Positions 4,011-36,650 of a DNA stretch of 36,650 bases are shown piece after piece (within the stretch, counting starts at the first letter, position 1; every line of letters begins with the position of its first letter). The stretch is from positions 1 to 36,650 of the forward strand of contig JACPAV010000041.1 of the NCBI GenBank assembly GCA_016180645.1, in the 5' to 3' direction. The DNA comes from Nitrospirota bacterium. GTDB lineage: Bacteria > JACPQY01. The translations under genes and the position numbers were made by a program. Below the pieces are notes generated by a model. The model saw only the letters and a program-made list of their open reading frames with translations, was not told the origin of the DNA and made no database searches.

Positions 4011-7000
4011 TCACGGGGCATCCAGATTTTGGACCTGCACGGGCGTGGCGGCGTCGAATTCCGATCCGTCCCCAAGCTGACCGAACCGATTCGATCCCCA
4101 GCAGTAGATCTTCCCGTCGGCCATCATGGCGCAACTGTGATCGGACCCGGTCGTAACCGCCACGACGCCGGAGAGCGATGCGACGGGGACCGGTTCGAAG
4201 CGGCTCTCACTCGTCCCATCGCCCAGTTGCCCGCTCAGGTTCAGGCCGAAACAGCGGATGGTGCCGTCCGCGATCAGGACGCAAGTGTGATGGTCGCCCG
4301 TGGTGACCGCCACCCCTCCGGAGAGGGACGAGGCGGCGATGGGGATGCCGGGACTGGCGGACTCCCCGAAGCCGAGCTGGCCGTCCGCGCCGCGACCCCA
4401 GCATTTCACCGTACCGTCCGAGATCAGCGCGCAGGTGTGATACAGGCCGGCGGAAATGGAGACGGCGTTCGACAGGGATGTGACGTCGCTGGGCGAGCCC
4501 CGGTTCACCGTGGTCCCATCGCCGAGTTGGAAATTGTCGTTGAACCCCCAGCATTGCGCGCGGCCGTCCGAGAGCAAAGCGCAGGTGTGCCCGCTGCCCC
4601 CGGTGAGACCGGTGGCCCCGGTCAATCCCGATACCGTGACCGGCGTGGCGGCGTCCATCGTGGTGCCGTCGCCCAATTCCCCGGTGTAGTTTCGTCCCCA
4701 GCATTTGGCCGTGCCGTCCGCCAGGACCGCGCAGCTATGGTTCAGACCTCCGGCCACGGATACGGCGTTCGTGAGGGTGGAGACGGCAACGGGCGTCAAT
4801 CGATTGAAGCCGGTTCCGTCGCCCACCTGGCCGCTGTAGTTCGCCCCCCAGCACTTCACCGTGCCGTCGGCCATCGCCGCACAGGTGTGATAGATCCCTC
4901 CGGTCAGGCCCACGGCGTCCGACAGAAACGCCACGGACTCCGCAGTGGGTTTGCCGGACATCGAACCGTTCCCCAATTGTCCAAACTGATTTCGCCCCCA
5001 GCACTTGGCGGACCGGTCGGAGAGGAGGACGCAGGAGTGATACATCAGATGGCCGGCCAGGGACTCGCGGAGAGGACGCGGTTGGAGAGCGCCGGAGGAG
5101 GGGGTGGAGTCTTGCACGCGGCGGGCGAGAATTCCGATGGGACCGACCAGGTTCTCCACGGAGACAGGTCCGAGGCGGGTGAGCCGCGTCCCGTCTCCCA
5201 CCTGGCCGAACGAGGAATCTCCCCAACATTTCGTGACGCCGCCCGATACCAACGCGCAGGTATGCAATGAGCCGGCGGCAATCATGATCACGCGATCCAG
5301 GCCGGAGATGACTTCGGGCGAGGAGGCATGGGCCCCGGTGCCGTTTGCGAGCTGACCCTCCGCGCCGCGCCCCCAACAGGCCACGGTGCCGTTCGCGAGG
5401 AGGGCGCATGTATGATGCGTTCCTCCGGTGACAGACAGTGTGTTTGAGAGGAGGGAGACGGCCGCCGGGGCGAGCCGATTGACGGTGGTCCCATCCCCGA
5501 GCTGACGGTTGATGTTGAGTCCCCAGCATTTCGTGGATCCGTCGGCCAGGATGGTGCACGTGTGGGCGGCGCCGGCGGCGGCGGCCACGACGCCCACGAG
5601 GGAGGAAACGGCAACGGGCACAGGGCGGCTCACGGTGGTCCCGTCGCCGAGTTGCCCAAAGAGATTGGCGCCCCAGCACCGCATGATGCCGTCCGACAAC
5701 ACAGCGCAGGAGTGATCGCTCCCTGTGGCTACCGATACGGCGTTGGAGAGCGACGTGACGGCCACGGGAGTCAGGCTGCTCACCGTGGTGCCGTCACCGA
5801 GCTGGCCGTAAGTGTTGGCGCCCCAGCAGTGAACCGAACCTCCGGCGATGAGCGCGCAGGAATGGGCGGTGCCTCCGGAGACCCCCACGGCGTTGGAAAG
5901 ACCGGTCACTCTCTTTGGCGTCGGGCTGTCGGCGGTCGATCCATCTCCGAGTTGGCCGAAGAAGTTTGATCCCCAGCATCGGACCGACCCATCGGGCATG
6001 AGGGCGCAGGTATGGAGGAGCCCTTGCGAGAGAGAGACGATTCCGGAGAGCGAAGTGACCAGGACGGGCATGGGTTGGCTCGTGGCGGCTTCCGCGCCGA
6101 TCTGGCCACGGTCGTTTCTTCCCCAGCATTTGACGCGGCCGCCGGGAATAAGAGCGCAGGCATGGTCACCGGCGTGGGTGAAAACGGCCTCCGCGTGGGT
6201 TCCCCAGGTGCTGGCTGTTCTCCGAACGTCATTGAGATCGAAATTTCCGGCCTCGTCCATGGCCCGCACGATGTAGGAATAGCGGGCGCCGATGACGAGG
6301 GACTGGCCGCCGCAGTTGCCGCCCTGATCGCTGAAGGCCGTGGCTCCCGGGTCCGTCAAACAGGTGGGCGCGAACACGGAACAGCCGTCGGCCGTGGTGG
6401 ACCGGCAGATGGCGTAGCGGAGGTCACCTTGAGCCGTGAGGTTGTCTGTGGCGGGGCTCCAGGAGAGATCAATCTGGGTGGTGGATTCGGGCGCGATCGT
6501 GGATAGGCCCGCGAAGGCCGGAGGTGTGGGATCGGGGATGAGGCCGTCCGATACGGTGATCGGGCTCGTGTTTCCGGCTTTGTCCCGCGCGCGGACGTGG
6601 ACGAAATAGCGGGATCCCTCCGTCAGGAAGAGCGCCGTGCGGGTCAACGACGTAACGTTTCCGAGGCGCTGAAAGGTGAAGTCGATGCCCACACAGACCC
6701 CCGGGGAGCTCGAATTCGAAACGCAGGCCTCATAGGTGTCCAACCCGGATCCCGCATCGATGGAAGCGGGCCAATTGGCCTCGAGCGCGAACGAGGAGGA
6801 CTGGATGTCAATGTCGGGGCCCGTGCCGTCGTTGACCACGGGAAGCGTGGAGGGGGCTTGCGTGTCGGTCCTGGCGGTGGAGGCTGAGGCATACAGGGAG
6901 TGTTGACCGGCGCCGTCGTACACGATGAGTTGGTACTGGAGACAGGTGGAGGTGGCGGCGGAGCTGTCGACGTACGGGGACGTTCGTGGGTTCATGGCGA

Positions 7001-34421: not shown

Positions 34422-35180
34422 CTGTATATCCTCTATCTTGATGAATCCGGAAACCCGGATGCCCCCGCTGACCGGACCTTCGTGCTTGCGGGCGTGGCCG
34501 TATTCGAGAGGCAGGTCTACTCGGTTGGCCAGGCACTGGATAGAATTCAGGACCACTACTTCCCCAACTCCCCTCCTATCGAGTTCCACGCAACGAGCAT
34601 CCGCTCCGGCGACGGATTCTGGCGTGGCGTGGACAAGGAGACCCGCGGTCGAATCATGAGGGAGATCGGAGTGAATCTCCGGGAAGCCCACCAGACGGGT
34701 CTGGTCCTTTTCGGGGCCGTTGTGGAGAAAACGTCGCGCATTCACGGCGAGGAGGCTGTTCTGCTCGCGACCGAACAGATATGCAAGAGGTTTGACACCT
34801 TCCTCAAGAGGCGTGAGAATGATAACCACGATCCACAGAGAGGCTTGGTGGTTTTCGCGGAGGGTCGATTTCACCAGCGAGCCAGGCTTTGGGTGCGCGA
34901 CTTCAAGAAGCTTGGGACACAGTGGGGTGTACTGACGAAACTTTGCGATATTCCATATTTTGCCTCGACGCGGGAAACACGCCTGCTGCAAGTCGCCGAC
35001 TACGTCGCCCATGCGACCTACCTCAATTACGAGAAACGCTACGCCGAATATTTCGATGTGATCTCCAGTCGATTTGACTCGAAAGATGGCGTTGTCCACG
35101 GCTTGGTCCACTACCTGCGGGATCCGGGGGCGGCTCGTGACTGTTCAGGCCCGGCCTGCCGCAGGAGCATGACCCGATAG
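34422..35180 (+). CDS. DUF3800 domain-containing protein (probable CTG start)
   Basis: YILYLDESG, FVLAGV, EFHA..I and S..TRLLQVADYVA. In-frame stop at 34404-34406; AGGAG RBS 6 nt before CTG 34422. Confidence 0.85.
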   Translation: MYILYLDESGNPDAPADRTFVLAGVAVFERQVYSVGQALDRIQDHYFPNSPPIEFHATSIRSGDGFWRGVDKETRGRIMREIGVNLREAHQTGLVLFGAVVEKTSRIHGEEAVLLATEQICKRFDTFLKRRENDNHDPQRGLVVFAEGRFHQRARLWVRDFKKLGTQWGVLTKLCDIPYFASTRETRLLQVADYVAHATYLNYEKRYAEYFDVISSRFDSKDGVVHGLVHYLRDPGAARDCSGPACRRSMTR

Positions 35181-35217
35181 TGATGCGCCATGGGCGCGGC
35201 ATCCCGTCGGGGGACTG

Positions 35218-35325
35218 ATGGCTGAACGCACGACATCTTTTGCGCTTTCTCCGAATGCGTCGGGGGACCGGCATGATCTTGCGGATCACATCCGGCCCGT
35301 TGCACGGAAGGGAGACTGGAAATGA
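35218..35325 (+). pseudogene. 35-aa remnant resembling the N-terminus of a Cas3 HD nuclease (type I-C-like)
   Basis: MAERTTSFALSPNASGDRHDLADHIRPVARKGDWK*, similar to the (Y/F)AHS.N..G..H.L.DHL..VA start of Cas3; GGGGGA upstream. Not in the ORF track. Confidence 0.5.
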
Positions 35326-35519
35326 ATAGAATCTACCAAGGGCGCGTCACGAAAGTTGAAGTCTCCAAGGGCAAGGGTGCCGAAGGAAAGGAGCAGTGGG
35401 AGCCGTTGCCGGATTGGCCCGCCGCCCTCTGGCGGCACCACGAACTCTTCCAAGACGCGGTGAATTACTACACGCTTGCGCTCGCGGCATCTCCCGAAAC
35501 ATTTGCGGAATCAAAATAG
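35322..35519 (+). pseudogene. cas12b: 65-aa N-terminal remnant of Cas12b (C2c1)
   Basis: MNRIYQGRV..VE and LWRHHELFQDAVNYY..ALAA match the N-terminus of Opitutaceae-type Cas12b as recalled (LNRIYQGRV...LWQHHELFQAAINYY). Confidence 0.75.
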
Positions 35520-35529
35520 AGGAACACTG

Positions 35530-36585
35530 ATGAACGAACTTTATCGCACCTACGAAGTTCTAATAGAGGAAACGGTTCACCCCGACAATCCGAAGCGGAA
35601 AACCAGCAACAAGCCCGGCGTGTGGGATCAACAGAAATACGATGCCCTCCGCGACACGAACGCAGTGTTTCAGGATGCCGTGTGCTACTACACCATCTTG
35701 ATCGCGGGCTTGGGCGGCGACCTGAATCCACTTTGGGGCGAAATGTGCGAGCGGGAAGAGCATCCCGGCAATGATGTGACAAAGGTTCTGCAACGATTGG
35801 CCGCGAATTACCCGGGGCTGCCGCACGCGCAATCAGTGCGGGAGCTTGTGAGCGGTGCTCTTACTCAAGGCAAGTCAGAGACCGAGCGGAAACGAACCTA
35901 CGAGATACTTGAGAGTCAACTCGCGGGCGAAGACACCGAGTTGGATATCGAGAACCTCACAATGTTCGCCCACGACAACGGCCTGAGACTGTGCAGCCCA
36001 ACAAGCAAGAGGAAGATGCCTGGCTCGGCTTTGCTGAACAGGCTGTACTGGATGATACACGGTGCGCCACAGTCTCATGCGGACGTAGCGGCAATGGTGA
36101 CTCTGATTGACGAGTTCCGTAATTCAGTCGAGTTGCCTTCCCAAGACCGCGTGAAGGAACACTATCAAGCAGCGTTCACTGTTGCCAAATGCGGTCGAGC
36201 GAAGAAGTTGCGGCCTTTGATCGAAGCGCAACTCGCCGATTTGCAGGCGCATATTCAGGAGGAGGCTCATACGGACAGACGGTTTGTCTGGTTTCATCGT
36301 TCCGGCCCGGTCAATCCAATGGCGCACCTCGTGGCCCGCTTGCTCTGGTTCCAGAACGATGAGGTGCTCGCAAGGATCGCCCTTGAAGACTTGGTTGGTT
36401 TCATCAGCAACCCCGGTAACAAGATCGCCAAGCCTCTTGGCGACGAGGGCGGGATGCCAAGCAAATTCCCTTATTTCACGCAATGGCTTGGCATCAAGTT
36501 TGAATCACCTGCGTTCAGAGAGAAGTTCGATGACGCCGTGTTGAAGATGGCTGAAGTTACCCCCGTTTTTTGGACAGGTGGTTAA
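35530..36585 (+). CDS. Divergent Cas12b-related type V effector, N-terminal ~340 aa only, interrupted by an IS
   Basis: LYRTY, FQDAVCYYT (shared with the upstream stub), LCSP, ARLLWF, FPYFT and FDDAVLKMA are colinear with recalled Cas12b motifs. RBS GAGGA before ATG 35530; the last ~11 codons are IS-derived. Confidence 0.6.
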   Translation: MNELYRTYEVLIEETVHPDNPKRKTSNKPGVWDQQKYDALRDTNAVFQDAVCYYTILIAGLGGDLNPLWGEMCEREEHPGNDVTKVLQRLAANYPGLPHAQSVRELVSGALTQGKSETERKRTYEILESQLAGEDTELDIENLTMFAHDNGLRLCSPTSKRKMPGSALLNRLYWMIHGAPQSHADVAAMVTLIDEFRNSVELPSQDRVKEHYQAAFTVAKCGRAKKLRPLIEAQLADLQAHIQEEAHTDRRFVWFHRSGPVNPMAHLVARLLWFQNDEVLARIALEDLVGFISNPGNKIAKPLGDEGGMPSKFPYFTQWLGIKFESPAFREKFDDAVLKMAEVTPVFWTGG

Positions 36586-36650
36586 GCCAAGATTTTGGCA
36601 GAATCGAGGTTCAAGAAACGGAAGGAGAGATCATGGGACAGAAGCGGAAA
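36552..36650 (+). mobile_element. Left end of an IS3-family insertion sequence (runs off the window)
   Basis: TGAAGTTACCCCCGTTTTTTGGACA resembles IS3-family IRL (5'-TG...GGACA); GAAGGAG RBS and ATG 36633 give MGQKRK, typical of an OrfA start. Confidence 0.7.

Follow-up and report, generated by a model that had tools for sequence, protein, structure and literature searches.

Organization of the stub and effector genes

We analysed a 36,650-nucleotide (nt) stretch of DNA from a Nitrospirota bacterium (contig JACPAV010000041.1 of assembly GCA_016180645.1), referred to here as the window. It is the complete contig C62 of a 65-contig bin (genome G000) and has a G+C content of 61.5%. Close to its right-hand end lies part of a type V-B CRISPR-Cas locus, in which the 5′ end of one large cas12b gene precedes a different large cas12b gene. 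Three start codons follow one another on the forward strand, each with a purine-rich tract upstream. The first open reading frame (ORF), of 35 amino acids (35218–35325), begins with the ATG at 35218 and ends with a TGA (35323–35325) that overlaps the ATG (35322–35324) of a 65-residue ORF (35322–35519); the TAG of the latter (35517–35519) is followed after 10 nt by the ATG of a long frame, at 35530 and not at 35531. This geometry had been described in an original prediction made from the letters alone, and it was borne out by the sequence.

Judged by its sequence, the 65-residue ORF (MNRIYQGRV...LWRHHELFQDAVNYYTLALAA) is the retained 5′ end, or stub, of a canonical large cas12b gene, in agreement with its earlier reading as a Cas12b N-terminus. 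It matched the PADLOC Cas12b profile PDLC01657 (E = 6.8e-10, profile positions 1–41) and NCBIfam NF033949 (E = 4.6e-6, profile positions 1–23), and a search among longer proteins returned 431 at E ≤ 0.01. The best relatives, which are 76–79% identical over 86–91% of the 65 residues, are proteins of 1376–1483 amino acids with C2c1 helical and RuvC-like Pfam domains. Homology to the canonical consensus runs from Met1 to ...FQDAVNYYTLALAA (residue 56, approximately base 35490) and then ends; at 65 residues, the ORF does not extend to the helical and RuvC domains of a full-length Cas12b. The junction with the downstream gene (35490–35529, forward strand), as delimited by the sequence and the canonical consensus, comprises the non-homologous stub tail SPETFAESK, the TAG codon and the 10-nt gap, which carries an AGGA Shine-Dalgarno-like tract. 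A scan of 35000–35700 found no terminator-like sites, and so none between stub and effector.

The frame that starts at 35530 runs to 36585 and had been taken for a whole gene, but its last 34 nt and its stop codon lie within the left end of an insertion sequence (see below); the contig ends 99 nt into this repeat. What the window holds at 35530–36551 (forward strand), as judged from relatives and from the alignment to the 1555-residue relative P0162, is the first 340 codons, plus 2 nt, of a large Cas12b effector gene that was cut within its first helical (REC1) region. The remaining 1162 codons are found on contig C55 (C55:100–3588), the start of which holds the only other Cas12b signal in the genome, in an open frame of 1164 amino acids that begins at the contig edge. 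The two halves abut on P0162, residues 1–340 aligning with 1–359 and the C55 part with 360–1554. Removal in silico of the element and of one GGC restored the reading ...DDAVLKM-A-FEDVFKYKQRT..., in agreement with P0002 and P0003 (...DDAALSMAFEDVFKYKQRT...), both of which are uninterrupted across the position of the break. Since the restored frame fits the relatives and the halves abut on P0162, the gene originally had 1502 codons. The 351-residue protein predicted from the contig is a fragment of this insertion-split gene, which should serve as a warning for annotation.

The N-terminal 340 residues of the effector have 41 relatives at E ≤ 0.001, the full-length members of which span 1471–1819 amino acids; among the fetched loci, lengths of up to 1911 amino acids occur. 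These 340 residues alone gave no match to NF033949. On C55:100–3387 (profile positions 282–1217) the same profile reached 398.8 bits, its cut-off being 150, and PF22126 (C2c1 RuvC-like) matched the C55 part with E = 1.5e-23. The strings SVDLG, LEDLTRY and NADENAA, which we take to be RuvC motifs I–III, are also present there. One relative, P0006, which is 36% identical over the N-terminal 340 residues, is annotated as Cas12b by NCBI. A large Cas12b1 clade of approximately 1,500 amino acids, reaching 1,888, is described in the parts of a published survey considered here (PMC10691335). With its 1502 residues, its C2c1 RuvC-like domain and an NF033949 score above the cut-off, the downstream gene belongs to this clade, and not to the new, divergent type V effector family that had been proposed for it.

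The 35-residue ORF (35218–35325, forward strand) had been read as the start of a Cas3 HD domain. Profile searches gave no Cas3/HD or other significant family match (Pfam at E ≤ 1; NCBIfam and PADLOC at E ≤ 10), nor were any relatives found, the best tblastn hit among the fetched loci L008–L102 having an E value of 2.2. The window contains 344 ORFs of at least 35 residues over its six frames, or 9.4 per kb. Because ORFs of that size are so frequent in this window of 61.5% G+C, and with neither family match nor relatives, we judge the 35-residue frame to be a chance ORF within the 141-nt spacer that separates the upstream DUF3800 gene from the Cas12b stub.

The tandem recurs in related loci

For comparison we assembled 77 loci that encode relatives of the effector N-terminus, 49 from metagenomes and 28 from genomes, and scanned them with two small profiles, one for the canonical N-terminus and one for the N-terminus of this effector. 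Sixty-two non-redundant loci extended 200 nt or more upstream of the effector. In 52 of these an MNRIYQG-type start lay no further than 700 nt upstream, with the HHELFQDAV block also in frame with it in 38; the other 10 had no such start. The usual form is a short ORF, MNRIYQG(R/K)V..., immediately upstream of the effector start. The locus most closely related to that in the window (L008, 71%) is truncated by the start of its contig, yet the tail of a decayed stub is still visible. The control set consisted of 401 genomes from the phylum to which the genome of L061 belongs; ten of them encoded Cas12b, and seven canonical loci included the N-terminus. None of the seven (0/7) had a separate stub, the motif being situated inside the long ORF. 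Given 52 of 62 loci against none of seven canonical ones, effectors of this sub-branch usually occur in such a tandem, which is no private accident of the present genome.

The three-module history put forward in the original prediction, in which a class 1 Cas3 module, a V-B module and a new type V module succeeded one another in a single slot, can be assessed against these results. There are indeed three starts in tandem, the middle one belonging to a Cas12b N-terminus, but the 35-residue ORF carries no Cas3 signal, the third gene is itself Cas12b, and the presence of stub and effector together in 52 of the 62 loci indicates a standard arrangement that is passed on or exchanged as such. We regard the full model as very unlikely. 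Its core, successive replacement in a defence slot, fares better in part: a Cas12b 5′ end does stand before a different Cas12b effector and the comparative data fit recombination, whereas the class 1 stage, the novel effector type and a history peculiar to this genome all fall away.

The spacing of stub and effector also bears on whether the two are one gene, expressed through programmed frameshifting or stop-codon read-through, as their proximity on the same strand might suggest. Gaps from the stub to the effector ATG are mostly 8–30 nt, with a full range of −38 to +123 nt; the frame offset is 0, 1 or 2 and the stop codon TAA, TAG or TGA, depending on the locus. In all loci, moreover, the effector has its own conserved methionine and N-terminal strand. 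Because frame offset, stop codon and gap all vary between loci, we exclude a recoded fusion as extremely improbable.

Several further features were seen among these loci. Two stacked MNRIYQG-type starts precede a single effector in L077 (6357–7180) and in L053 (1539–2019), so that stacking of stubs recurs outside the window; in L077 the first start continues for approximately 15 codons before it is joined to an unrelated frame some 200 residues long. In L092 (G063:C35, 1411–1779), a canonical cas12b 5′ fragment of 122 residues stands as an orphan, away from any cas gene; its genome also has a stub and effector on another contig, and the upstream flank of the orphan resembles that of L046 (75–81%). 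At 18 non-redundant loci (among them L011, L016, L023, L031, L055, L057, L060 and L062), the effector ORF is shorter than 1400 residues although it is not cut by the end of the locus, reflecting either frequent breakage of large cas12b genes or assembly errors. In the stub-less loci L014, L020, L032 and L045/L081, a conserved ORF that ends ...GWVVIDYKSFQG...CYRQALAA... and may be Cas4-like has its 3′ end in front of the effector, which points to a different locus layout.

Stub and effector have separate histories

The similarity of the stubs did not track that of the effectors. A Mantel test between stub and effector distances gave a Spearman r of −0.035, a value reached in 3638 of 5000 permutations; on these distances, the histories of the two are uncoupled. 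Loci L037, L044 and L057 illustrate the point, since their stubs are near-identical (synonymous divergence, pS, of 0.04–0.12) and their effectors are at saturated divergence (pS of 0.75–0.86).

Pairwise comparisons located the breaks in homology. The 3 kb upstream of the effectors in L018 and L050, stub included, are 88% identical, rising to 96% over the last 700 nt, and this homology stops 2 nt past the FQDAV codons. The effector genes that follow have no alignable DNA, their products being only about 31% identical. Homology then resumes approximately 37 nt after the effector stop codons and continues for 5.5 kb at 80%, and the two loci have the same CRISPR repeats. The converse arrangement is found in L070 and L071, whose effectors share 91% identity; here homology sets in 85 nt ahead of the point where the conserved block ends, and the upstream sequences are unrelated. 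Similarly, in L010/L057, L053/L055, L051/L055 and L065/L070 homology extends into the effector from 32–54 nt before the block end, while L059/L061 and L030/L077 have the left side in common and different effectors. In the pairs examined closely, the break in homology falls at the block coding for HHELFQDAVN or slightly upstream of it.

We also looked for the corresponding trace on the right. No canonical 3′ stub was found after an effector stop codon, all matches to a C-terminal profile lying inside effector ORFs. With no effector followed by a leftover of a canonical C-terminus, the right-hand exchange point would lie beyond the gene.

Origin and retention of the stub

Taken together, these observations make it quite probable that the stub is the footprint of the replacement of an effector cassette by recombination, and that it probably still supplies expression signals. 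A divergent large cas12b gene would have replaced a canonical one, of which the 5′ end was left 10 nt upstream. The left crossover zone would be the most conserved block at the 5′ end of cas12b, the codons for LW(Q/R)HHELFQDAVN, and the right crossover would fall just past the effector stop codon, towards cas4/cas1. On such an exchange, the part of the stub to the left of the block would remain with the host locus, while a single incoming unit would bring the block, a short spacer carrying a ribosome-binding site, and the new effector gene in full. The stub most likely persists as the carrier of a promoter and translation start for the incoming effector, and its persistence may be helped by continued use of the conserved block as a crossover site. 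In the present genome, an insertion sequence later split the effector after codon 340.

A number of points weigh against this account. The positions at which BLAST homology ends near the conserved block are partly shaped by the conservation itself, but the contrasts in L018/L050 and L070/L071 are too sharp to be due to block conservation alone. The mapped swaps are between stub-bearing loci only. The step from canonical to divergent effector is deduced from footprints, because no intact canonical gene was found at an orthologous locus when the ten loci of the canonical search and L092 were compared with the 77 loci by BLAST; only segments of adaptation genes (65–82%) and the upstream flank common to L092 and L046 were shared. 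The canonical control is small, comprising seven loci. No close relative by which to date the event was found, the N-terminus of the effector being absent from all 60 other genomes searched, which included only one of the same family. A sigma-70 scan, which may not fit this lineage, gave 0 promoter-like sites in 35000–35700. Finally, some features of the stubs resemble those of a selected protein. Across 39 distinct stubs, identity at codon positions 1, 2 and 3 is 0.73, 0.78 and 0.48, with pN (non-synonymous divergence) of 0.24 and pS of 0.70; older stub pairs have pN/pS of 0.10–0.66; and the stub in the window is pristine, showing 0 deviations over 22 columns for which conservation among 88 full-length proteins is 90% or higher. 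The codon-position pattern is a signature of protein-level selection that can also be inherited, and it is not decisive because the divergence may date from the time that the sequence spent in a working gene.

These last features would fit an alternative in which the stub is itself a functional gene, either a leader ORF whose translation the effector requires for its expression (coupling) or a micro-protein imitating the N-terminus of Cas12b, maintained by selection and recombining independently of the effector. Such a role could also account for the retention of the MNRIYQG start in 52 of the 62 loci, for the short gaps to the effector ATG, and for loci L026 and L064, in which the remainder of the stub is deleted or frameshifted and remnants of 20 and 27 residues keep the start and end 6–20 nt before the effector ATG. 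The stub is not uniformly kept, however. Among 32 loci with intact effectors of at least 1400 residues, 21 have both motifs in frame, five have no stub and six have a stub that fails the test for the second motif, four of these being clearly broken. Stubs deviate at canonically conserved columns 2.8 times as often as full-length proteins (52/838 against 45/1929; Fisher p = 1.4e-6), an excess that holds even though well-kept stubs were pre-selected for the count. The four closest stub pairs have near-neutral pN/pS ratios of 0.56–1.13, the effector has a homologous N-terminus and Shine-Dalgarno-like tract of its own, and the stub of L092 stands without a nearby cas gene. We consider a functional stub rather unlikely and the stub peptide probably dispensable. 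The suggestion in the original prediction that the short ORFs are retained as leader peptides shares this modest standing as regards the 65-residue ORF and fails for the 35-residue one, given that the latter is a chance ORF.

Returning to cassette replacement, a wider proposal can be formulated, to which we give somewhat less than even credence. Two conserved blocks, the one coding for LW-HHELFQDAVN at the 5′ end of large cas12b genes and the sequence immediately past the effector towards cas4/cas1, would act as natural homology arms for the exchange of whole effectors between V-B loci, in the manner of tip swapping in polymorphic toxins, the stub being the standing footprint, kept as promoter and translation start, and effectors of only about 31% identity could serve the same repeats and adaptation genes.

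Comparison with known systems

As in the large Cas12b1 clade, to the extent that it is described in the parts of the survey considered, the effector here is followed by a cas4/cas1 fusion, cas2 and an array with 36-nt repeats (PMC10691335). The present sub-branch differs from the rest of the clade in that its effectors start M..ELYRTYEVLIEE.. instead of MNRIYQGRV... Also unlike the clade as it is described there (PMC10691335), a stub from the other branch usually precedes the effector, and in the genome studied here the gene is split. Neither a Cas12b 5′ stub nor exchange mapped to a short conserved block was met, as a recurrent feature or otherwise, in the full-text literature searched (supplements excluded) or in the parts of PMC12669027 and PMC10691335 considered.

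The arrangement has parallels outside type V-B systems. Polymorphic toxins are known for a conserved motif at the boundary and for orphan remnants, and as in those loci, a conserved block here borders the constant and exchangeable parts, with recombination swapping the variable part and leaving remnants behind. Old toxin tips are described, in the parts of the source considered, as being replaced by new ones through recombination with cassettes (PMC3482391). In contrast to toxin tips, what comes in here is an entire gene that has a start of its own, immunity genes play no part, and the remnant is a short upstream 5′ piece and not a displaced downstream 3′ tip. The effector and adaptation modules of CRISPR-Cas systems shuffle in a modular fashion; the L018/L050 pair conforms to this, the effector being swapped while cas4/cas1, cas2 and the array stay. 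It goes beyond general shuffling in that exchange is mapped to short conserved blocks and leaves a recurrent, recognizable footprint. The stub also resembles translationally coupled leader ORFs, since in most loci it ends 8–30 nt ahead of the main ORF, but unlike them it is recognizably derived from part of a paralogous gene, and about one-third of the loci with intact effectors lack it or have it in broken form.

If the proposed replacement is correct, one branch of large Cas12b bears a recognizable scar that marks the site of exchange. The turnover of CRISPR effectors could then be mapped at base resolution, including which parts move, how frequently, and whether pressure from anti-CRISPRs drives the process. 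Effectors as dissimilar as the L018 and L050 pair (about 31% identity) may use the same guide scaffold and repeat, which bears on guide-RNA compatibility. The stubs would also explain short ‘hypothetical’ ORFs annotated upstream of large cas12b genes.

The insertion sequence and support for the assembly

The reading frame of the effector is interrupted after codon 340 by an insertion sequence, of which the left end occupies the last 99 nt of the contig (36552–36650, forward strand). Contigs C42 and C27 have the identical 99 nt at one end (their starts), and the presumed transposase ATG lies at 36633. The right end of the element corresponds to 98 nt at the start of C55, which are common to the ends of C8 and C32. 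When the three left junctions (C62, C42 and C27) were compared with the three right junctions (C55, C8 and C32), all three pairs could be matched via 3-bp target-site duplications, GGC, GAG and GAA; in the effector the duplication is GGC, at 36549–36551 with a second copy at C55:99–101. The ends form imperfect inverted repeats, the left starting TGAAGTTACCCCC and the reverse complement of the right GGAGCTTACCCCC. The element thus has terminal inverted repeats, target-site duplications and several copies, at least three in this genome.

Sequencing depth is consistent with a multi-copy element. In run X1 the summed contig depth at 36552 climbs from approximately 40 to 341, the rise at the element is 4–8 fold overall, and Logan contigs of 1013–1329 nt contain the element at about four times the depth of its flanks. 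The body of the element is not among the 65 contigs of the bin, the shortest of which is 5758 nt; only the 99-nt and 98-nt ends are present. No uninterrupted allele of the effector was found in the contigs of four runs, although contigs drop rare variants.

We also considered whether the junction of stub and effector could be an assembly artefact, a chimeric join of the cas12b genes of two strains, as might be suspected of a contig that belongs to a metagenome bin and terminates within a repeat. The original prediction had named such a chimera as grounds for abandoning its interpretation. Per-run contigs from three runs of a single study, possibly the source of this DNA, cover 34800–36581 contiguously with 0 differences and at even depth. 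The junction is therefore not an assembly chimera, and the tandem is in any case present in dozens of independent assemblies, leaving this explanation with negligible probability.

The remainder of the locus

The other components of the type V-B system are on C55, downstream of the second part of the effector. A cas4/cas1 fusion (C55:4377–6203) matched PF01930 (E = 3.5e-15) and PF01867 (E = 3e-88), and is followed by cas2 (C55:6207–6497; PF09827, E = 3.1e-20) and, in the region 6498–6960, by a mini CRISPR array of two spacers, with two identical 36-nt repeats and a degenerate third (at 6768, 6838 and 6907). A candidate anti-repeat of a trans-activating CRISPR RNA lies between cas2 and the array (C55, approximately 6569–6604, forward strand), with 25 of 36 positions paired and a run of 11. 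For such an RNA in the spacer and stub region, no convincing anti-repeat was found in C62 34000–36551, where the best run (15) falls inside the DUF3800 gene. With its effector interrupted after codon 340, the type V-B locus of this genome is presumably now inactive.

The gap between the effector stop codon and cas4/cas1 is unusually long, at approximately 790 nt (C55:3589–4376), and contains an antisense ORF of 156 residues (C55:3792–4262). A resemblance of this ORF to toxins was not borne out, and it has no Pfam match. On the other side of the tandem, the upstream neighbour is the DUF3800 gene (34482–35180, forward strand; PF12686, E = 3.7e-8), which serves here as context only. At the opposite end of the window, positions 1–99 are common with the end of contig C37, providing a link in the assembly graph.

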